From positions 64,001 to 128,000 of the forward strand of contig RDOB01000006.1 in NCBI GenBank assembly GCA_011364965.1: DNA of 64,000 bases, written 5' to 3'. This DNA comes from Candidatus Heimdallarchaeota archaeon. Lineage in GTDB: Archaea > Asgardarchaeota > Heimdallarchaeia > Hodarchaeales > Hodarchaeaceae. The translations under genes were made by a program, and so were the position numbers. Shown in pieces: positions 9,668-26,675 of the stretch. How positions within the stretch are numbered: position 1 is the stretch's first letter; each line of letters opens with the position of its first letter. Under the pieces are notes generated by a model that saw only the letters and a program-made list of their open reading frames with translations, was not told where the DNA came from and searched no databases.

Positions 9668-11155
9668 GTGTATAATATTACTGGAGGTATTTTTTTGGTT
9701 ACTAAAACAAAGATTGTATGCACAATTGGACCAGCTTCTGAAGATATAATTACTCTCAAGAAGCTCATTCGTGCAGGAATGGATGTATGTCGGTTAAATT
9801 TTAGTCATGGAAATCACCCTGATCACCTTGAACGATATGAACGAATTCGCTCAGTATCTGATGATGTTGCAATACTTGTGGATCTTTGCGGTCCAAAAAT
9901 TCGTACAGGTGAAGTTAAAGAAGGAACTATTCTGAAATCAGGGCAAAATTATCGGATATCAGCTGAAATTGGACTGGAAGGAGATTCAAATGTATGTTCA
10001 ACTAATTACCCTCCTCTTGTGAATGATTGTGAGGTAGGAAATCATTTAGCGATAGATGATGGTCTTTTACAATTACGAGTGACCAAAAAAGATAATCAAA
10101 CGCAAGAATTGATCTGTAAAGTTTTGCATGGAGGACCTTTGAAATCAAGAAAAGGAATAAATGCTCCAGATGTCCCTCTCTCCCTCTATTTTCCTCTGGA
10201 AAAAGATCTAGAAGATATTAAGTTTGTTATAAAGAAAATGGACATTGATTTTCTTGCTGCTTCATTTGTCAGAAGAAAAGAAGATATTTTAACCGTAAAG
10301 AAAATTTTGGAAGAATCCGATTCTTCTATACAGATTATAGCTAAAATTGAGAACCGAGATGGGATCAAAAATTTTAACGAGATTTTAAAAGTTGCTGATG
10401 GAATAATGGTTGCTCGGGGAGATCTAGGTATAGAAATTCCAAGTGAAAAGGTTCCAATTGTTCAAAAAGAGCTCATTAAAGCCTGTAATATCGCGGGAAA
10501 ACCAGTTATCGTTGCCACTCAAATGCTTGATTCAATGACAAATAATCCACGCCCAACACGCGCTGAAGTATCTGATGTTTCCAATGCAATTATTGATGGA
10601 GCTGATGCAGTTATGCTCTCAGGAGAGACTGCAGTGGGAACATATCCTATAGAAACTGTTAACTATATGGAGAGAATTCTGAAAGAAATCAATCTCAATC
10701 AGCATTTAATACAAAGAGTAACTGCTGATTCATTAAGTGAAACTGAATCCTCAATTTCCGAAACTTTAGGAAGAGCAACTAACCTTATTAGCCAAACAAG
10801 AAAATTAAAGATAAAAGCTATTGTCACTAGTACTCGTACAGGATCAACTTCCAGATTAATTGCTAAATGGCGTCCAGAAAAACCAATTATTGCAGGTACT
10901 CCATATAAATCCGTACAGAGGCAATTGCAACTGAGTTGGGGAGTATATCCAATACAAGTTGATGTCGTACCTTCATTTGATGAATTAGTATATAATATTG
11001 TGAAGAAATCATCAGATGAAGGTCTTTTAGCATCTAAAGACGAAATTATAGTTGTTGGAGGTAGTTTATTGGGTTTCCCAGCAAAAACAAACATGATTCA
11101 AATCATGCAAGTTTATGATGTCCTCCTGTACGGCCAGAAGCTCCAGAGAGTATGA
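9668..11155 (+). CDS. pyk: Pyruvate kinase
   Basis: KTKIVCTIGPAS, RLNFSHG, IAKIE, MVARGDLG, PTRAEVSDV, MLSGETA; likely start TTG 9695 after GGAGGT. Confidence 0.97.
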   Translation: MYNITGGIFLVTKTKIVCTIGPASEDIITLKKLIRAGMDVCRLNFSHGNHPDHLERYERIRSVSDDVAILVDLCGPKIRTGEVKEGTILKSGQNYRISAEIGLEGDSNVCSTNYPPLVNDCEVGNHLAIDDGLLQLRVTKKDNQTQELICKVLHGGPLKSRKGINAPDVPLSLYFPLEKDLEDIKFVIKKMDIDFLAASFVRRKEDILTVKKILEESDSSIQIIAKIENRDGIKNFNEILKVADGIMVARGDLGIEIPSEKVPIVQKELIKACNIAGKPVIVATQMLDSMTNNPRPTRAEVSDVSNAIIDGADAVMLSGETAVGTYPIETVNYMERILKEINLNQHLIQRVTADSLSETESSISETLGRATNLISQTRKLKIKAIVTSTRTGSTSRLIAKWRPEKPIIAGTPYKSVQRQLQLSWGVYPIQVDVVPSFDELVYNIVKKSSDEGLLASKDEIIVVGGSLLGFPAKTNMIQIMQVYDVLLYGQKLQRV

Positions 11156-11182: not shown

Positions 11183-13432
11183 GTGATAATCGTTACTGTT
11201 GCTGACGGATTTCAAGAGGATTACGGACAATCGATTGGGAGGATCGCTGAAAAGCACTTTCAGGAACTCGGGTTAGATATCGGAGAAATAGTGGAATTAA
11301 TAAGTGGTACACAGCGAATTGGAGTCTTTCTACGTGGATTGGAGGAGGTTGAGAACAGTAAAATACTTCAAAGATCCATATATAGGTCAGATGAAGTTTT
11401 CAAGAGAAGATCAGATGAAAAACCGATTATTCTCTATCTCAATGGCTTTCTAAGAGCCAGTTTAAAAATTGGTATAGGACAAAAGGTGAGGTTGGATAAA
11501 ACAAGCCCTCCAGAAGCCGATACAGTCTTAATTGCTCCACTCAATTCCGAAGATAAAGAGAAAGTGTATATAGAATATTTATTGAATCGTCCAGTTATTC
11601 GTGGACAAATCATCGAACTTCAAAATATTGGATACGATCTAAAAGCTGCAATATTAAAAACAAATCCTCCAGGGATAGTGAGGATCTCTGCTACTTCAGA
11701 TGTCAGGATTACAAATGACCCTCCACCCGAATTAGTAAAAAATAACGAAAATTATGTTTCATATGACGATATTGGGGGATTTAGAGAAATTATCCAAAGA
11801 GTACGAACTCTCGTTGAATTTCCTCTACGCTATCCAGAGGTTTTTGAATTGTTGAATATTGATCCGCCAAGAGGAATTTTAATAACTGGACCATCAGGAA
11901 TTGGCAAAACGTACTTAGCAAAAGCTATTTCGTGTGAGTCTGGTGTGACACGTTTTTTTGTTATGGCACCAGAAATTATCAAAGGTTGGTGGACTGCAGA
12001 ACAAGAGATGGATAAATACTTTCAGCATGTCTTAAAATTTGAACCTTCGATCTTAGTAATTGATCAAATTGAGACTCTAGCTCCTACTCCGACTCCCAAT
12101 CTCTCTGATCTTGAAATTAGAATGACGGAAAGATTTATTAGAAATTTAGATGCTTTAAAAGGCAGAAAAGTTGTGGTTATAAGCACTACTAGCAATCCTA
12201 ATGACATCCATCCAGCTTTGCGAGCTTATGGCCGATTCGAGATTGAGATTCCTCTGAAGATCCCAGATTTTAAGGATAGAAGTGAGATTTTAGCGATTCA
12301 AACGAGGGGCCTTCCTTTATCAGCTTCTATTGAGATTCCAACACTTGCTCAAGCGACAAGTGGATTTACTCCTGCAGATTTGGAACTTCTCGTGAAAGAA
12401 GCTGGAATGCATGCTCTGGAAAGAACGAATCTTTTAGATCTTGATACTAAAGTATCATCTACTGCTCAATTAATCAAATCAGAGGTTATAATGGTTGAGC
12501 TAGTCATGGAAGATTTTACTAAAGCATTAGCGACAGTTAAACCTTCAGCTGGTAGAGAAATAATAAATGAAATTCCAAAAGTGAAATGGAGTGACATTGG
12601 AGGATTAAATGATGTAAAACAATCATTGAAAGAAATGATTGAGTGGCCAATAAATCACACACATGTGTTTGAAGAGATGGGAATTCGAATTCCACGAGGT
12701 GTGCTCTTATATGGGCCACCAGGAACTGGAAAAACTCTTATAGCAAAAGCTATGGCAAATGAAATTTCTGCAAATTTTATTGTTGTTAAGGGTCCAGAAT
12801 TATTGTCCAAATGGTTTAGTGAAAGTGCTCGAATGGTACGCGAGCTTTTTAGTCGTGCGCGTGCGTTAGCGCCATGTATCGTGTTTTTTGATGAAATTGA
12901 CGCGATTGCGACTAAGCGTGGAGGAGGATTTTCAAGTTCCACCTCCCGAGAACGAGATAGAGTAATTAATCAACTATTAGCTTCTTTAGATGGAATAGAT
13001 AAGATGAAGGGAGTTTTTGTTGTATGTGCTACAAATAGGCCTAATATGCTAGATCCAGCTTTAATCAGACCTGGAAGATTAGATCGGTTGATATACGTAC
13101 CTGTACCTAATTTTGAAGGGAGAATCCAAATATTAGAAGTTCATACTCGTAATATGCCCCACGATCTGGCAAAAAAAGTCTCTTTGCATGACCTAGCGTC
13201 GAAAACGGATGGTTTTACTGGAGCAGATTTAGAAAATCTGTGTCGAGAGGCTGCTTACTCGTGTTTGAGACGAAATTCTTCACTAATTTCATCAGATGAC
13301 TTCGAAAATTCGTTGAAGATTTGCTCACCTTCCGTGAGTAAAGATCTTGCTAGATTTTATCAAATTCAAGAAGGAATTATGAAAAAGAAAAAATTGATTG
13401 AATATACTAAATACTATCAGGAGTATGCATGA
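11183..13432 (+). CDS. CDC48/VCP-like type II AAA+ ATPase, paralog A (D1 Walker B DQ)
   Basis: N-domain plus two AAA modules; D1 GPSGIGKT/LVIDQIE; D2 GPPGTGKT/FFDEID/RPGRLD; C-terminus EYA. Confidence 0.92.
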   Translation: MIIVTVADGFQEDYGQSIGRIAEKHFQELGLDIGEIVELISGTQRIGVFLRGLEEVENSKILQRSIYRSDEVFKRRSDEKPIILYLNGFLRASLKIGIGQKVRLDKTSPPEADTVLIAPLNSEDKEKVYIEYLLNRPVIRGQIIELQNIGYDLKAAILKTNPPGIVRISATSDVRITNDPPPELVKNNENYVSYDDIGGFREIIQRVRTLVEFPLRYPEVFELLNIDPPRGILITGPSGIGKTYLAKAISCESGVTRFFVMAPEIIKGWWTAEQEMDKYFQHVLKFEPSILVIDQIETLAPTPTPNLSDLEIRMTERFIRNLDALKGRKVVVISTTSNPNDIHPALRAYGRFEIEIPLKIPDFKDRSEILAIQTRGLPLSASIEIPTLAQATSGFTPADLELLVKEAGMHALERTNLLDLDTKVSSTAQLIKSEVIMVELVMEDFTKALATVKPSAGREIINEIPKVKWSDIGGLNDVKQSLKEMIEWPINHTHVFEEMGIRIPRGVLLYGPPGTGKTLIAKAMANEISANFIVVKGPELLSKWFSESARMVRELFSRARALAPCIVFFDEIDAIATKRGGGFSSSTSRERDRVINQLLASLDGIDKMKGVFVVCATNRPNMLDPALIRPGRLDRLIYVPVPNFEGRIQILEVHTRNMPHDLAKKVSLHDLASKTDGFTGADLENLCREAAYSCLRRNSSLISSDDFENSLKICSPSVSKDLARFYQIQEGIMKKKKLIEYTKYYQEYA

Positions 13433-13435
13433 CGA

Positions 13436-15808
13436 ATGGTGTTTTGTGAATTAATTGAACCCTTAGGCGCAGATTTTGGAGAACGAATAATACGACTTCC
13501 ACAAAATATCATCTCTAAACTTGACATAGAGGAAGGAGATATACTAGAAGTAATCTCGAGTGATGGAAAGCGCTTAGGTGTGTTTGCGTATCTAGATCAT
13601 CATTCTGCTGTACTTGATGAGATAAGGGGTATTGAAAAAAGATCCATTCCAGATTCACCGATAATTCCCCAAATTGCATCTCCTGATGATGGTTTACCAA
13701 AGCCAGAGGGAAAGCCATTTGTAGGAATTGAGGGTATTGAACGGGAAGGATTAGCTAAATGTCGTCTTGATGGTGAGGTTCGGTTGTCTCTAGGAGTGAA
13801 AATTGGTGATATAATTGAAGTAGATACCGTTCTGAAACCCGCTTATGCTAAAAAAATTTATTATTGCATTTTGGGTGTAAATCCATCTAGTTTGTCAGAT
13901 GAGGAAAAAGGGCTTATTTCCGATCAATTACGATATCAGATCTCTAAACCTCTCTCTGCGGGCATAATCATAAATATTAATTTCGCTTTTAAGCAGGAGC
14001 AGGTGTTAATCCAATCGTGTGATCCTGATACAATTGTTATTCCTTCCATAAAGACATCTTTCGAATTATTAAATACATTTGTTCCACAGAATAAAGAAGA
14101 GGCTCTCAAAGTCACTTATGAAGATGTGGGTGGTTATAAGGAGGCAATTCACCGATTAAGACACTTAGTTGAGATTCCTATCCTTAAACCCGAGGTTTTT
14201 AAAAAAATAAATCTTGTTCCACCAAGAGGAATTTTAATTGAAGGTTCTACAGGAGTTGGCAAGACTCTTATTCTTAGAGCTCTTGCGAATGAGACTGGTT
14301 GTCGTGTTATTGAAGTTCCTAGCAATTTATTTGCAGGAGTGGGACCTACTGAAAAGAATATTCGCGATCTGTTTGAGAAAGTAAGATCTGAAGCGAGGAA
14401 AAAACCTGTTTTGTTAATCTTAGACAATATGGAGTCATTGACTCCCGCTCCTAATGTTAATCTTCCATTATATATAAAGAGGTTTACCACGCAATTCGCG
14501 TTAGGATTTGATTCTTTACGGGGTACTAATACCATCATCATCGGCGCTTGTCACTCGACAGAAGATATTGACCCTATTTTAAGGAGGCCTGGCCGTTTTG
14601 ACGTTGAGATCGAGATTCCTATTCCATCTGAACTTGAACGACTCGAAATACTCAATATTCATCTTCGTCGAGTCCCTAAATCTAATGAGATTACTAGGGA
14701 GATATTACGTACTTTTGCTCATCGAATGGTTGGTTATGTAGGTGCAGATATCTCTCAATTTGTTAAAGAAGCGTGTATGCGCGCAGTTGGTAGAAATGTT
14801 TCTTTATTCAGTAATTTACCCTCTCAAATTCCAAGATCCATTTTACGTACAATTCAGGTAACCGTTGATGATTTAGAAGAGGCTTATAAGATTACAGAAC
14901 CCTCAGCTTATAGATCGATTCATTCTAAATTAGAAGTCCCAAATGTGACTTTCGATGATATTGGGGGATTAAAAGAAGTCAAACAGTTATTAAAAGAACA
15001 AATAAAATGGCGTTTTGAGGATCCTGATACATTAAAACAGATGGGGGTAAAACCATCAAGTGGACTCCTCCTGTATGGCCCTCCAGGAACCGGGAAAACA
15101 CTACTTGCAAAAGCGTTAGCGACAGAAATGCATGCAAGATTTATTTCAATAAAAGGCCCTGAGTTACTTAGTGTTTGGTTTGGGGAATCAGCAAGGATAA
15201 TTAGACAATTGTTTAAAAGGGCCCAAAAATTAGCTCCATGCATATTATTTTTCGATGAGATTGATGCAATGGTTCCCCGTAGGGGTAGTGATGCCGACAG
15301 TGATGGAGGACAGGAAATAGATGCAACTGTTAATCAATTATTGACTTTATTAGACGGAATGGACAGCTCAAATGATGAAATCTTTATAATTGGAGCAACT
15401 AACCGACCAAATGCTCTAGATACTGCTTTATTACGTCCAGGAAGACTTGATCGCTTGGTTTTAACTCCTCCTCCAGATTTAGAAGGTCGTAAAGAAATAA
15501 TTCGAGTACATACGAAAAAAGTACCTCTTGTTGGAGATCGTGAAGAGATGATCATAGATCTGGCTAAATTGACCGAGGATTTTTCAGGAGCTGACATTGA
15601 GAACTTAGTACGTGAAGCGGTTCTAGCTAGTTTAAGGGAGAACTTTAATCAAAGAGAGGTTTCCTATTCACATTTTCAAACCGCTCTTGCTTTAGTAAGT
15701 CCAAGTATAGATCAAGGAATTATTAAACATTATGAACAATTTGTGAGTGAAGTCTTGGGGAGCCCGAGGAATGTAATATCCTCCCAAAAACCATTTACTT
15801 ATGGTTAG
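13436..15808 (+). CDS. CDC48/VCP-like type II AAA+ ATPase, paralog B (D1 Walker B DN)
   Basis: D1 GSTGVGKT/LILDNME; D2 GPPGTGKT/FFDEID/RPGRLD; C-terminus TYG. Confidence 0.92.
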   Translation: MVFCELIEPLGADFGERIIRLPQNIISKLDIEEGDILEVISSDGKRLGVFAYLDHHSAVLDEIRGIEKRSIPDSPIIPQIASPDDGLPKPEGKPFVGIEGIEREGLAKCRLDGEVRLSLGVKIGDIIEVDTVLKPAYAKKIYYCILGVNPSSLSDEEKGLISDQLRYQISKPLSAGIIININFAFKQEQVLIQSCDPDTIVIPSIKTSFELLNTFVPQNKEEALKVTYEDVGGYKEAIHRLRHLVEIPILKPEVFKKINLVPPRGILIEGSTGVGKTLILRALANETGCRVIEVPSNLFAGVGPTEKNIRDLFEKVRSEARKKPVLLILDNMESLTPAPNVNLPLYIKRFTTQFALGFDSLRGTNTIIIGACHSTEDIDPILRRPGRFDVEIEIPIPSELERLEILNIHLRRVPKSNEITREILRTFAHRMVGYVGADISQFVKEACMRAVGRNVSLFSNLPSQIPRSILRTIQVTVDDLEEAYKITEPSAYRSIHSKLEVPNVTFDDIGGLKEVKQLLKEQIKWRFEDPDTLKQMGVKPSSGLLLYGPPGTGKTLLAKALATEMHARFISIKGPELLSVWFGESARIIRQLFKRAQKLAPCILFFDEIDAMVPRRGSDADSDGGQEIDATVNQLLTLLDGMDSSNDEIFIIGATNRPNALDTALLRPGRLDRLVLTPPPDLEGRKEIIRVHTKKVPLVGDREEMIIDLAKLTEDFSGADIENLVREAVLASLRENFNQREVSYSHFQTALALVSPSIDQGIIKHYEQFVSEVLGSPRNVISSQKPFTYG

Positions 15809-15896: not shown

Positions 15897-18800
15897 TCAT
15901 TTTTCGTATGGTATACCATCATTTGCTGGAGGACGCATTCGTTTAGCTACAGTAGAGACTGCTATAATAGTTAGTAAGTATGGAAATACTTTAAATAACT
16001 TTTCAAAGCGCCAGATATATCCAAAAATCTGTATTGCCCATTTAATCCCTAAAGCTTCAATTTGAAAACGAAAAGCAATTGCAAAACCAAAAAGGAGACT
16101 TGCTAGACTAGCTCCGATAGGACTCCAGCCGCCAAATATTAATGCTGCTAAAGCTACAAAACCTCGTCCAGTAGTCATATCACGACCAAAGAGGGGAGCC
16201 CAACCCAAGGTTAATTGTGCACCTCCAAGAGCTGCAAGCATCCCAGATAAAATTACACAGACATATCTTGTTTGAAATACATTTATTCCAAGTGTATCTG
16301 CTGCTTTCGGATGTTCACCTACTGATCTTACACGCAATCCAAATGAAGTGTGTTCAATTACCCAGTAAGATATAAACATCAAGAAAATAAAAATATAAAC
16401 AAGGGGAGAAAGTCCAGCTGTTCCTCCTGACAAATTGAACAAGATTTCACCTACGATCGGAATATCTCTTAGGAAAGGAAATTTGATATTGGTTAATCCC
16501 TTCACAATTGGAGATGTACCTTTACTTTCTGGACCATATACTAATAACAATCCAAGTAAAGTTATTGCTGAAGCTAAAATATTAATAGCCACTCCGACCA
16601 CTACTTGATCCGCACGAAATTTAATTGAAGCCACAGCGTGCAATAATCCCATCAATGCACCTGCTATAAGTGCACCGAGGACTCCTTGCCACGGATCGCC
16701 TGTAGCGAAGGAAAACCAAACAGCAACAAATGCACCTGAAAGCATCATACCTTCCAAACCAATATTAACAACTCCTGATTTTTCAGAATACATTCCACCA
16801 AGAGCAGCAAATCCGATTGGAGCAGCTATTGATAAGGTTTGCGTGAAAAGTAAGAAAGGATTCATATCAAAAATCCAGGATAAGGAAACAAACGAAAATA
16901 CAAGAGCACTGACAACAAAGAAGAGCGGTAAAGACTGAATTAGAAATCGAACATCCTCTTTTGGAATTTTAATGCGTTTTAAGTAATAATAGGTAAAAGG
17001 TACAGATACTATTCCTATAAATCCAATCAAGGAGCCAAGATCATTAAGAGTAAAGAAAAATAATGGAATAGAAAAAGGCAACCTTATTGCTTCAGTAATA
17101 ACTACTGTAAATGTGAGTATGACATAAAAAGCAACCATAATCCCAAATATTTTACTAACCGTTTTTTCATCAAAAGGATGAGCTTCTTCAGTGATAATTG
17201 CTGTTTCTTTGGAGGGGGTTCGAACACGGAATTCTTGGAATAATATATAAGCAATTATCGCAACAAAAACAATCAAAAGTATAAGATCTTGTCCAAATAC
17301 ATTAATTAGGCTGAAAAACATTAGAATAAAGAAAATTGAGCTGAAGACCAATAATAACCTCTGCAAACCTTTGGAAAATCCCTGCTTTCGCATAAATAAA
17401 GCAGTGAGAACAAAACAAGCGGTGAATGCAATATTAATAATAGCTACATATATGTGGGTTGCTTGAGTGTATAGATCAATGCTCAAGTTCGATAAAGCAG
17501 TAGAAATAACTCCAATTAATGGTATTCCTACCAATAATCCTGCTAAACCTTGGTTACCAAATTTTACTGTTCCAGTGATATCCAAATAAAGTATGAAAGC
17601 TACTATAAACATGAAAATTGCTGTTAGTATATATTTTCTAATAATTATATAATGATATATTGCATTTAATACTGGTATAATGTTTGCTTTCAAAGAAAGA
17701 AACAGATGATATAGTGCAATCCAAATGAAAACTAATAAAATGATATGGATAAATTTATTCCATCTTGTGGGTTTCGATGCAATTCTATACTTATATGAAT
17801 CGACAGCTCTGTTATACCAGCCAGTTTTTCCAATATATGACATAATCATTTTTGAAAACAGTGGTACTGCAACGATTAAAACGATAAATCCCTTAAGTGT
17901 GTTCGCAACATCTTTAGGAATCCCATTTTGCTGTAATTTCGTACCACTGGCTTGAAGCCATCCAAACAATATTGCCCCTAAGATAACTCCGATAGGATGG
18001 TTCTCACCAATTAGAGCAATAGCTATTCCGTCAAAGCCCATTCCACTAGTAGAACCATATAAGAAAAATCCATATAAGGGCCCCATCACAACCAAAGCTC
18101 CTGCTAGCCCGCCTACTCCTCCTGAAATTAACATCACATATATTAGATTACGATTTACATTAATACCCCCATATTTTGCAGCAGAAGGACTGTATCCTAC
18201 AGCTCTGGTTTCATATCCGAGTTTAGTCCTCCATAACACAATGTAGATAATAATACAAACTACGATATTTAATAAAAATCCCCAATGTAAAGGAGAAACC
18301 TCTCTTCCAAAAATTGTTGGGATTCTAGTATTTGCAGGAATTGGGGGAGTTTGAGGTGAAGCATTCCCAGCAAGATTCTGATCGGTAAAAGGCCCACCTG
18401 CACCTATCAAGAATACCATCAGACTATTGGCAACATAGTTCATCATAATTGTGGTAATGACTTCATGGACACCCCTAGCCTTCAGCACAGCTGGAACTAA
18501 AGCCCATAATGATCCTCCTAACATTCCCGCCAAAATCATTGCTGGTACAAGTACTAATGGGGGTATATTGAGGCCAGCGAGTCTTATTGAAGAACCTAAC
18601 AAAGCTGTAGTAAACCCTCCTATTACTACCTGTCCCTCCGTTCCGATGTTAAACATCCCTGCCCGAAAAGCAATTGCTACTGATAAACCAGTTAATATGA
18701 GAGGTGTGGCATAAAAGAACACATTAGCAAGTGCTGTGATATCAATATTTCCAGTTTGATCGAAGAAAATGTCGATAAGCATACTTTTCAGGACTAGAAT

Positions 18801-18938
18801 TGGATCGAAATTCGTAATGATGAGTATAATGATAATGATAAAAAAGGAAATTAAAATTGAGAAGAGAGGGATTGATAACTTCCTTAAAGCCATTTCAAGT
18901 TTTGATTGGGTAATTGTTGATTCTACTTCAGTTGCCAT
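15897..18938 (-). CDS. Fused nucleoside/sugar ABC permease (NupB-like + multi-TM insert + NupC-like)
   Basis: Two BPD_transp_2 signatures: FRAGMFNIGTEGQ...HEVITTIMMN and EKSGVVNIGLEG...VGEHPKAADTLGI. Confidence 0.88.
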   Translation of the reverse strand: MATEVESTITQSKLEMALRKLSIPLFSILISFFIIIIILIITNFDPILVLKSMLIDIFFDQTGNIDITALANVFFYATPLILTGLSVAIAFRAGMFNIGTEGQVVIGGFTTALLGSSIRLAGLNIPPLVLVPAMILAGMLGGSLWALVPAVLKARGVHEVITTIMMNYVANSLMVFLIGAGGPFTDQNLAGNASPQTPPIPANTRIPTIFGREVSPLHWGFLLNIVVCIIIYIVLWRTKLGYETRAVGYSPSAAKYGGINVNRNLIYVMLISGGVGGLAGALVVMGPLYGFFLYGSTSGMGFDGIAIALIGENHPIGVILGAILFGWLQASGTKLQQNGIPKDVANTLKGFIVLIVAVPLFSKMIMSYIGKTGWYNRAVDSYKYRIASKPTRWNKFIHIILLVFIWIALYHLFLSLKANIIPVLNAIYHYIIIRKYILTAIFMFIVAFILYLDITGTVKFGNQGLAGLLVGIPLIGVISTALSNLSIDLYTQATHIYVAIINIAFTACFVLTALFMRKQGFSKGLQRLLLVFSSIFFILMFFSLINVFGQDLILLIVFVAIIAYILFQEFRVRTPSKETAIITEEAHPFDEKTVSKIFGIMVAFYVILTFTVVITEAIRLPFSIPLFFFTLNDLGSLIGFIGIVSVPFTYYYLKRIKIPKEDVRFLIQSLPLFFVVSALVFSFVSLSWIFDMNPFLLFTQTLSIAAPIGFAALGGMYSEKSGVVNIGLEGMMLSGAFVAVWFSFATGDPWQGVLGALIAGALMGLLHAVASIKFRADQVVVGVAINILASAITLLGLLLVYGPESKGTSPIVKGLTNIKFPFLRDIPIVGEILFNLSGGTAGLSPLVYIFIFLMFISYWVIEHTSFGLRVRSVGEHPKAADTLGINVFQTRYVCVILSGMLAALGGAQLTLGWAPLFGRDMTTGRGFVALAALIFGGWSPIGASLASLLFGFAIAFRFQIEALGIKWAIQIFGYIWRFEKLFKVFPYLLTIIAVSTVAKRMRPPANDGIPYEK

Positions 18939-24736: not shown

Positions 24737-25405
24737 CTACCTAAGAGTAGCAACCCATTTATATACTGGATCACAGAGCTCTTTGATTCTTTCCTTCTCT
24801 GAAGTCATAGGTCCTGGTTTCCAGGAAGGATCAGGTTCGAACCAGAAATCGATTAGATTTCCCACACGATCCTCGACAGGAACTATTTTGACGACAACTG
24901 GCATGTTTGTTTCAGTATGCCAAGGTTCAGAGATGTGTAGAATATTTGCAATAGCTGTCTTACTTTCTCCAATTAATACATAAGCCAAAACAAATGGTAA
25001 TTTTTTCAAAGCACTCTTCGCTGAGAATCCACATATAGTCCAAGCATGAAGAATGCCTTTTTTAGGCATTTCTACCCAATTAGTGATTTCTAAATCACAA
25101 TCTAAGTTCCAACAATTAACTCTAGGAGGGAAAGTGATATCTCCACATTTTGGACATTTAGTACCTAGTAATTTTCCATCTAATAATCCTTTGGAGTAAG
25201 GAGAAAGCGCTCCTAATCGAAAAGTGTATAGCATATCATAGTAGATCTGTTGTTCTACCCAAATTTTTCCTCCAGCTTCTCCACTACGAACATTTTGCCA
25301 TACCCATCCCTGTTCTGGAACCAAGGGTTGAATCTCTTTCCATGCGTTCCATCGGAACTCTTTATTGAATGGGGTTGGATGTAAGTCCTTTTTCATATTA
25401 TTCAC
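24737..25405 (-). CDS. DUF35 (Zn-ribbon + OB-fold) thiolase-associated protein
   Basis: GTKCPKCG..FPPR..C, PFVLAYV; 1 nt downstream of the thiolase-like gene. Confidence 0.85.
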   Translation of the reverse strand: MNNMKKDLHPTPFNKEFRWNAWKEIQPLVPEQGWVWQNVRSGEAGGKIWVEQQIYYDMLYTFRLGALSPYSKGLLDGKLLGTKCPKCGDITFPPRVNCWNLDCDLEITNWVEMPKKGILHAWTICGFSAKSALKKLPFVLAYVLIGESKTAIANILHISEPWHTETNMPVVVKIVPVEDRVGNLIDFWFEPDPSWKPGPMTSEKERIKELCDPVYKWVATLR

Positions 25406-25406
25406 C

Positions 25407-26675
25407 TTAAATCCTCCTCAGAACGAAATTGGATATACTAGTTCCAGTACCTGCATGGCTGTTTATCAAACCAACTTCTGCATCTTTCACCTCGTTTTCT
25501 GTTGACCGATGTTCGCGTGGGATTAAGCCTGTTAGTTGATAATAGCACTCAATAGTTGACATTAGTCCTGTAGCTCCAACTGGATGACCATAACCAATTA
25601 ATCCTCCACCAGGATTAGTTGGAATTTCTCCTTCCATCATTGGTAGTTTATCATTGATGAAATCCTTGACAGGGATAGATTCACACCACCCTAACGCGTT
25701 ATAAATCTGAGCTTCTGAAGATGAAAAAGCGTCATGTACCTCAGCTACATCGAGATGTTTGTAGGAATCTTTCCATGGGATATCAGCCATTTTGTACGCA
25801 ATTTCTGCCGCGTGACGACATGCTCCGAATTCTCCTAGGCCTGGATAGCCTTTTCCATAACGCTGAGTCCATCCTGGGAAATTATATCTATCACCTGCCC
25901 TGATGGTACATGAAGATAGACCTGCTCCTGCAATTTCAACACTATGATCAGGAGAATATTGTTTTGCAAACTTCTCATTAGTAACTAAGACTACTGCAGC
26001 ACCTTCAGACATAAAACAACAATCAAATTTCTTTAGTGGATAAGCTATCAACCTTGAATTCATTATGTCATCAACGGTAAGTTTTTTGCCAACTTTTCGA
26101 AAATGTTGGGTTTTTTCACCTGTGGCCATCGCATTATTCTTATTTTTCACAGCAATCTCTGCAAATTCTTCTTCTGTGACATTATGCTTTTCCATGAAAA
26201 CTCTAGCTAATCCTGCATAATAATTTGTGTAATTGGCTCCGAGCATTGCTTCATACCTTGTATCGGAAGCAATTGCAATAAATTCGGATCCCTTGGATTG
26301 GGATACACTTCCCATCAATTCATAACCAATAACAGGTACTACATCCGCTAAACCTGCACGAACGAGGGCGTAGGCCGCATATAGCGCACTGCCCCCTGTA
26401 TTACCTCCGTTGTCGATTCTAAAATGTGGAACGCCCACTAATCCAAGATGATCATGAAGAATCCAATAAGCTGTTAATTGGTGGCTAAAATGAACCGAGA
26501 AATGTGAGTAAACGACCATACCATGGTCTCGAACATCTCTAAGGTGAAATTCAGGCACATCATGATAGAGTTGTTTTATACAGTTTGCGGTCATTTCTTC
26601 AATTTGAAGATTTAGGGGGTAATCAAACGGTGTTGTGGTTCCACCCGCGATAAACACTCTTTGTTGTTCTGGCAT
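25407..26675 (-). CDS. SCP2/archaeal-type thiolase-fold protein lacking the canonical nucleophile Cys
   Basis: IAVKNK, SEGAA, EVHDAF, NPGGGLIGYGHPVGATG; nucleophile loop reads DNGGNTGG. Confidence 0.85.
   Translation of the reverse strand: MPEQQRVFIAGGTTTPFDYPLNLQIEEMTANCIKQLYHDVPEFHLRDVRDHGMVVYSHFSVHFSHQLTAYWILHDHLGLVGVPHFRIDNGGNTGGSALYAAYALVRAGLADVVPVIGYELMGSVSQSKGSEFIAIASDTRYEAMLGANYTNYYAGLARVFMEKHNVTEEEFAEIAVKNKNNAMATGEKTQHFRKVGKKLTVDDIMNSRLIAYPLKKFDCCFMSEGAAVVLVTNEKFAKQYSPDHSVEIAGAGLSSCTIRAGDRYNFPGWTQRYGKGYPGLGEFGACRHAAEIAYKMADIPWKDSYKHLDVAEVHDAFSSSEAQIYNALGWCESIPVKDFINDKLPMMEGEIPTNPGGGLIGYGHPVGATGLMSTIECYYQLTGLIPREHRSTENEVKDAEVGLINSHAGTGTSISNFVLRRI

Follow-up and report, generated by a model that had tools for sequence, protein, structure and literature searches.

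The window analysed here is the 64,000-nucleotide stretch at positions 64,001 to 128,000 of contig RDOB01000006.1 from a Candidatus Heimdallarchaeota archaeon, and our subject is a tandem pair of AAA+ ATPase genes within it, called A and B. Gene A (11183..13432, + strand) has a GTG start and encodes a 749-residue Cdc48/VCP-type ATPase with the N-D1-D2 layout, whose first ATPase module, D1, is degenerate. Gene B (13436..15808, + strand) has an ATG start and encodes a 790-residue paralog of A with the same layout, again with a degenerate D1. The first-pass annotation, a model's reading of the letters, had described two diverged type II AAA+ genes 3 nt apart in an Asgard-like host. The open reading frames (ORFs) lie at these coordinates with the 3-nt gap, the proteins are 37% identical over 775 columns, and the labels of the orthologs place the host in the Hodarchaeales. 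At the junction (13419..13438, +) a ribosome-binding-like AGGAG within the 3' end of A is followed by the stop codon, the 3 nt and the ATG of B, a layout from which we infer translational coupling. Scanning for sigma-70 promoters and terminators gave no excess over shuffled sequences, with models that are not suited to archaea.

Both proteins matched the Pfam domains CDC48_N and CDC48_2 and two AAA domains with their lid domains. Each has one N domain of about 190-220 residues (a double-psi barrel plus a four-stranded part), after which come two AAA modules of the classic clade. The two N domains are only 24% identical, and that of B contains an insertion at residues 62-97 that is modelled with low confidence. 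Against the NCBIfam model TIGR01243, A scored 661 bits and B 571 bits; both scores are below the cut-off of 802.65 and mark divergent members. Sequence search of the PDB gave VAT (563 bits), p97 (about 505), AFG2A (477), NVL (390) and AFG2B (373). The Cdc48 fold was backed by AF2 models and Foldseek, with template-modelling scores up to about 0.75 against p97/Cdc48; these models and the complex prediction below were made for cluster representatives that match the window's proteins at 99-100% identity. Three canonical Cdc48 genes are present elsewhere in the genome, and the distance between A and B about equals that of A or B to those.

The D1 module of A is altered at several sites (all features are on the + strand). 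Its first helix (11798..11818) has Thr209 instead of the conserved Glu at the position of p97 Glu218, and its lid helix (12410..12424) has Glu413 for the conserved Arg at the position of p97 Arg424. Walker A (11888..11911) retains Lys-Thr, pore loop 1 (11981..11995) is Trp-Trp, and Walker B (12053..12073) is Asp294-Gln295. Across sensor 1 and the second region of homology (12182..12238) the Asn is gone and the second Arg finger is retained, while the first finger is missing from the segment at 12215..12238. In the D1 of B, the first helix (14153..14173) has His243 for the conserved Glu and the lid helix (14780..14794) has Gly452 for the conserved Arg. The region from Walker A to Walker B (14243..14434) retains Walker A, has a non-aromatic pore loop and ends with the Walker B Asp330-Asn331 (14414..14434). 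Sensor 1 is changed to His373 (14543..14557), and both Arg fingers are kept in the region of sensor 1 and the second region of homology (14543..14599). Every catalytic motif is canonical in the D2 modules of A (12713..13084, with a Trp-Phe pore loop) and B (15077..15451). The C-terminal tails of A (about 13421-13432) and B (15797..15808) have a penultimate Tyr and are HbYX-like. Gln295, Asn331, the altered Arg-finger region of A, His373 and the canonical D2s had all been named by the first-pass annotation, and all were recovered.

We compared 25 A orthologs and 22 B orthologs with a set of 185 Cdc48s. The D1 catalytic Glu was replaced in 24/25 A and 22/22 B orthologs; the second Walker B position was Gln in 22 A orthologs and His, Asn and Glu in one each, and Asn in 19, Asp in two and Lys in one of the B orthologs. 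It was Glu in 185/185 comparison Cdc48s, most of which had been picked for a canonical Walker B, so this is not an independent test. The sensor-1 Asn of D1 was absent from all A orthologs and from all but three of B. The second Trp of the A pore loop was present in 25/25, the first Arg finger was gone in 25/25 A, and both fingers were retained in 22/22 B. The D1 Walker A Lys was invariant in all 47 orthologs, as were D2 Walker B, sensor 1 and both D2 Arg fingers. A penultimate Tyr or Phe was found at the C-terminus of 25/25 A and 22/22 B, and the third-last residue in A orthologs was often not hydrophobic. Glu-to-Gln is the standard inactivating Walker B change in VAT (PMC5423775). Because of this known effect and the missing Glu, we infer that D1 binds ATP without hydrolysing it.

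The same D1 changes could be read as decay of redundant genes toward pseudogenes, or as assembly errors. The pair is dispensable, was not found in 15/22 genomes of the genus, and falls under the TIGR01243 cut-off with both members. However, the frames were open and full-length across dozens of independent assemblies, and D1 carried invariant residues specific to each group. In the closest genome pair, the only unsaturated one, the ratio of nonsynonymous to synonymous substitution rates of D1 was 0.04-0.06, equal to that of D2, which indicates purifying selection. On this conservation and selection the pseudogene or sequencing-error reading of D1 was rejected, and its probability is close to nil.

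A single-gene Cdc48 with a degenerate D1, called S here, was found in 5/12 Kariarchaeaceae genomes with no adjacent partner gene. Its D1 Walker B is Asp-Asp or Asp-Asn and its D2 is canonical. The S set contained 14 sequences (e.g. P0213, P0219 and P0227; loci L037:7156-9525, L038, L039, L079, L081, L218 and L227), which retain both Arg fingers and, in 12/14, the sensor-1 Asn. In one genus (g6) S adjoins enoyl-CoA hydratase and PaaA/PaaC genes. At L219:5464-7788 an S-type gene is split, in reality or through an assembly error, into a 178-residue N-domain ORF and a 595-residue D1-D2 ORF by an in-frame stop, with a Ras-like GTPase gene upstream.

Trees placed A and B as sisters (support 100/99 on D2 and 98 on D1+D2, the latter a quick tree) and S as the sister of A+B (99 on D1+D2; 90/67 on D2). 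The S+A+B clade was nested somewhere among archaeal Cdc48. Since S, the sister of A+B, is already D1-degenerate, these trees indicate that D1 catalysis was lost first and that the A/B duplication came second. The first-pass annotation had deduced an obligate heteromeric unfoldase from the D1 degeneration of both genes. Because the single-gene S, which presumably forms a homohexamer, already has a degenerate D1, this feature by itself need not mean a heteromer; the best sequence evidence for a mixed ring comes from the interface described below.

B came after A at 13/13 loci with sequence covering both genes, three of which are near-identical copies from one soil study. The spacer was -1 to 17 nt in 12/13 loci, and the 13th has an inserted gene. 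The A ortholog at that locus (L220:7001-12983), cut off from B by an opposite-strand metallophosphoesterase gene, is unique in this separation and also unique in having Asp-Glu in its D1 Walker B. The earlier annotation had proposed synteny across Asgard genomes as a check and unlinked orthologs with Asp-Glu in D1 as grounds for doubt; linkage and Glu loss were both found to be conserved. The pair was present in 7/22 genomes of the genus and was not found elsewhere among 400 Asgard genomes in a phylum-wide search that scored 6 candidates per genome and may miss weak homologs. The Hodarchaeales with an A ortholog include Ca. Hodarchaeum mangrovi. Searching the genome contigs with the D1 of A as query detected no related loci.

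Across the 22 genomes of the genus, A and B were present or absent jointly and neither gene was seen alone; an apparent 'A without B' in G015 was due to a scaffold gap that truncates B at residue 202. With the queries used, neither gene turned up in several congeners of 91-99% completeness. The carriers were scattered over the base of the genus on an RpoA1 tree, which requires 3-4 changes; the simplest account is an ancestral pair that was lost jointly several times. The A/B machine is therefore dispensable next to the three canonical Cdc48s. A and B also co-diverged (patristic r 0.94).

A scan of all alignment columns for charge reversals identified a pair at p97 positions 218 and 424, which lie in the large domain's first helix and in the lid helix, respectively. 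This pair is Glu-Arg in 176/185 canonical Cdc48s and in 9/14 S sequences. In A it is a neutral residue and Glu (24/25), and in B it is Lys or Arg (20/21) and a small neutral residue (Ser, Ala or Gly in most orthologs). The charges of A and B are thus complementary only in trans, between the lid Glu of A and the helix Lys of B, and the other interface is neutral on both sides. In single-gene Cdc48s the two positions reverse together in one chain (8 base/acid modules; Fisher p 1.7e-8, uncorrected for kinship), and they are mutual top partners by mutual information (rank 97 of 32385 pairs). By the joint reversal and the mutual information, the two positions are coupled.

The nucleotide site showed a matching division. 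The Arg finger equivalent to Arg359 is retained by all 22 B orthologs and by none of the 25 A orthologs, whereas A keeps the Glu273-equivalent, the box-II Asp and the Walker B Asp-Gln, which are lost or variable in B. The aromatic D1 pore loop is also kept by A only. In Pex1/Pex6, a subunit packs both its lid and its pocket against one neighbour, on that neighbour's large domain (PMC10518020), so the charge-pair and nucleotide-site patterns would coincide on one interface. Another candidate for a trans pair, at p97 Glu273/Arg287, fits this division, with the Glu retained and the Arg replaced by an acid in A and the opposite in B; its coupling is weaker (rank 351) and it may or may not lie between subunits, so it was not counted as evidence. 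Complex prediction of the isolated D1s (A 188-465 plus B 220-502) gave a score of 0.19, below the mark, and was given no weight either way.

Taken together, these patterns make it fairly probable that A and B jointly build an accessory unfoldase of the Cdc48 type, with the two subunits alternating in an A3B3 double ring, and that the pair goes back to a lone Cdc48 gene that was duplicated in tandem after its D1 had lost the catalytic Glu. In this ring D2 would hydrolyse ATP and pull the substrate with six aromatic pore loops, and D1 would serve as an ATP-bound assembly collar or scaffold. A tight D1 interface would be formed by the pocket of A and its lid Glu413 against the large domain of B, with both Arg fingers and position 243 (Lys or Arg in most orthologs). 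A loose one would be formed by the more eroded pocket and neutral lid of B against the large domain of A, which has a single Arg finger and whose helix residue is neutral. Two kinds of interface would give a trimer of dimers, as in Pex1/Pex6. The three Trp-Trp D1 loops of A may grip or select substrate as an entry filter, and the aromatic C-terminal tails might dock on the 20S proteasome. Feeding of the 20S proteasome by A/B is plausible because the penultimate aromatic residue is present in 47/47 orthologs and 20S subunit genes are present in the genome, although this is a weak suggestion.

Several points weigh against the alternating ring. One A ortholog has Asp-Glu in its D1 Walker B, and B of this genome has His243, not Lys, at the charge swap. 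Acid/acid or base/base combinations also occur at 218/424 in some single-gene Cdc48s, so the swap biases against homo-rings and need not forbid them. We take 218 and 424 to be in contact between subunits from general AAA+ ring geometry plus the covariation; our literature search found no paper stating this contact. The D1 of B, with Asp-Asn and both fingers, resembles the single-gene ancestor, itself without an adjacent partner. The interface charges of D2 are unchanged in A and B. Finally, joint loss and co-divergence are expected of adjacent genes with or without interaction.

Some of these points would also fit another arrangement, in which A and B have specialised as co-regulated paralogs and assemble into separate homohexamers, with N domains for different substrates and with interface changes due to drift once D1 catalysis was gone. 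D1 degeneration that predates the duplication needs no partner, the N domains have diverged widely, the D2 faces are unchanged, and operon structure can explain both the adjacency and the joint loss. However, a fixed charge would then go unpaired in each homo-ring, at a position that is strongly coupled (24/25 A, 20/21 B), A would lack the Arg finger that B keeps while keeping the pocket residues itself, and neither gene was seen alone. We consider separate homohexamers unlikely.

A and B may also co-assemble non-obligately, in variable or 4:2 rings, with one subunit self-sufficient, or with one acting as a modulator of the canonical Cdc48s. There is one clear discriminating pair only, all of it in D1; the lid of B and the helix of A are both neutral and could take other partners; the genome has three canonical paralogs; and 4:2 rings exist, as in SPATA5/SPATA5L1 (PMC12019325). 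In contrast, both faces of A and B are changed in a complementary manner, which fits alternation, and the acidic lid of A would face an acid on a canonical neighbour. This possibility has a small chance of being correct, and we retain the alternating A3B3 ring as the preferred reading.

Known Cdc48-family machines share parts of this design. VAT of Thermoplasma, also a TIGR01243 member, resembles A/B in its N-D1-D2 layout, its canonical D2 and its C-terminal aromatic tail and is their best PDB sequence match, but it is a one-gene homohexamer with the catalytic Glu in both rings (E291 and E568; PMC5423775). A and B, by contrast, are paralogs encoded by two linked genes; each has a degenerate D1, and their interface changes complement each other. 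S differs from A/B in being a single gene with both Arg fingers and the Glu-Arg interface pair mostly in cis. Eukaryotic p97/Cdc48 has the same fold, the Trp-Phe D2 pore loop and D2 as the main motor, but forms a homohexamer with intact D1 motifs. An NSF/Sec18-like reading was rejected, as its polarity is reversed: NSF has an active D1 and a degenerate D2, and A/B have a degenerate D1 and a canonical D2.

The earlier annotation had offered AFG2A/B-like and Pex1/Pex6-like machines as models. AFG2A/AFG2B (SPATA5/SPATA5L1) and Drg1 resemble A/B as Cdc48-family paralogs with a single N domain, and the heteromeric ring is predicted for A/B as well. In SPATA5/SPATA5L1, every ATPase centre takes part in hydrolysis, and together with CINP and C1orf109 the stoichiometry is 4:2:2:2 (PMC12019325). 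D1 is thus active in both AFG2 subunits, whereas that of A/B lacks the catalytic Glu. Grouping A+B with AFG2A was rejected by the approximately unbiased (AU) test on D1+D2 (p 0.0005), though not on D2 alone (p 0.42), and the AFG2-like assignment was dropped. These trees contained two AFG2A sequences, with p97- and NVL-like proteins assigned by motif and tree position and with AFG2B and NSF left out.

Pex1/Pex6 is like A/B in having two paralogs, a D1 that binds ATP without hydrolysis and an active D2, and its alternating tight and loose D1 interfaces (PMC10518020) are like those predicted for A/B. Other features differ. Pex1 and Pex6 have two N domains and about 1000-1300 residues, and A/B have one N domain; the PEX-1N domain matched neither A nor B, while the yeast Pex1 control matched. 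Pex1/Pex6 make no D1 substrate contact and have a single-aromatic D2 loop, whereas A has the Trp-Trp D1 loop, and the D1 of A/B is much better preserved. A Pro in the sensor-2 loop of A, considered as a Pex signature, was found in two yeast Pex sequences and is absent from that position in most others, and was rejected. The Pex1/Pex6 sequences came from a motif scan of metagenomes and were mostly fungal, with two checked against the PDB.

Every unconstrained tree made Pex1 and Pex6 sisters and grouped them with NVL and p97, apart from S+A+B (99/97 on D2). AU tests on D2 rejected A+B+Pex (p 0.025), A+B+S+Pex (p 0.004) and B+Pex1 (p 0.0015). On D1+D2, Pex1/6 with A+B or A+B+S was not rejected (p 0.20, 0.12 without motif columns, and 0.25). 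A+B as the sister of the p97/NVL/Pex clade was rejected on D1+D2 (p 0.0008 and 0.005) and not on D2 alone (p 0.41). We weighted D2 above D1+D2 for the Pex question because degenerate D1s are long branches that attract each other.

These tests bear on whether the D1-degenerate S+A+B lineage of Kariarchaeaceae and Hodarchaeales was the archaeal source of Pex1/Pex6. The host order is often placed as the sister of eukaryotes (PMC11188069), the D1 Walker B of yeast Pex1 is Asp-Asn like that of B (N526, PMC10518020), and the forced placements survived when D1 was included. Were it true, the non-hydrolysing D1 ring, and perhaps its heteromeric form, would be older than eukaryotes and peroxisomes. Against such a source stand the free trees, the D2 tests, long-branch attraction of degenerate D1s, the single N domain without PEX-1N, and the Trp-Phe D2 loop as opposed to the single-aromatic Pex type. 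Moreover, as A and B are mutual sisters, they are not one-to-one orthologs of Pex1 and Pex6. We regard this origin as improbable; deep kinship is disfavoured, and the likeness is most likely convergent. The Pex-like logic of degenerate D1 and canonical D2 stood, and membership of the Pex1/Pex6 family is unlikely. The D2 phylogeny that had been suggested as a check nested A/B in archaeal Cdc48 without Pex kinship. For the way in which eukaryotic heteromeric machines arose, A/B is relevant as a parallel and probably not as ancestry, given the sister relation of A and B, the position of Pex1/6 and the absence of a detected pair in most of the genus.

A pyruvate kinase gene (9668..11155, +) ends 27 nt upstream of A. 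It is also upstream of A in several orthologous loci and not in others, and as a variable neighbour it is not an essential part of the A/B system. Beyond it, the neighbours of A/B vary between loci, and the neighbourhood gave no substrate hint. Small-GTPase genes occur near A/B in some assemblies (L222:9797-11794, L223:1-562 and L225:404-994, among them an Arf/Rag-like protein of 665 residues and Ras/Roc-like ones); these are common in Asgard genomes, and their proximity is probably chance. A thiolase gene and a 222-residue partner lie directly 3' of B in four relatives (L031 and L034-L036), and here at window 24737-26675 (-), about 9 kb off. At window 15897-18938 (-), a 1013-residue ORF with two fused ABC permease modules adjoins an ABC ATPase, a BMP-type binding protein and a nucleoside phosphorylase, forming a nucleoside uptake cluster.

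Further Cdc48 variants were seen during the survey. Hodarchaeales have up to five or more Cdc48 paralogs. One of them (G000:C13:125385-127568, -) has a canonical D1 and a drifting D2, with a long branch and an altered Walker A context and pore loop, and a 209-residue ORF lies just upstream. In three congeners (G018:C112, G008:C9 and G003:C36) Cdc48 matches fall in open frames of 1209-1241 residues, perhaps intein-containing or fused. Four proteins (P0222, P0275, P0307 and P0355) have three tandem AAA modules with canonical motifs.

In conclusion, our analysis indicates that A/B is a real and conserved system that we did not find described; in the literature searched, no prokaryotic Cdc48 was described as heteromeric or as D1-degenerate. 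It reveals no new activity. S, a D1-degenerate single Cdc48, is a finding in its own right, and all three stages (canonical Cdc48, S and A/B) are extant, so that the order from catalytic loss to duplication can be read from the tree. The comparison also cautions that Pex-like features of Asgard proteins can be convergent. A precedent is the heteromeric RFC of Lokiarchaeales (PMC12680538), an Asgard AAA+ complex that passed from homomer to heteromer with the Walker B of one subunit lost and whose subunits co-purified; unlike A/B, it belongs to the clamp-loader clade and is argued to be ancestral to the eukaryotic complex. If the A/B ring is mixed, the archaea most closely related to eukaryotes would have taken, independently, the step from homomer to heteromer that also gave rise to Pex1/Pex6, Rpt1-6 and further AAA rings of eukaryotes. 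The A/B ring would then stand beside RFC as an experimentally accessible Asgard case of a homomeric AAA ring turning heteromeric, and the two-residue swap would be a direct handle on how paralogs lock together.

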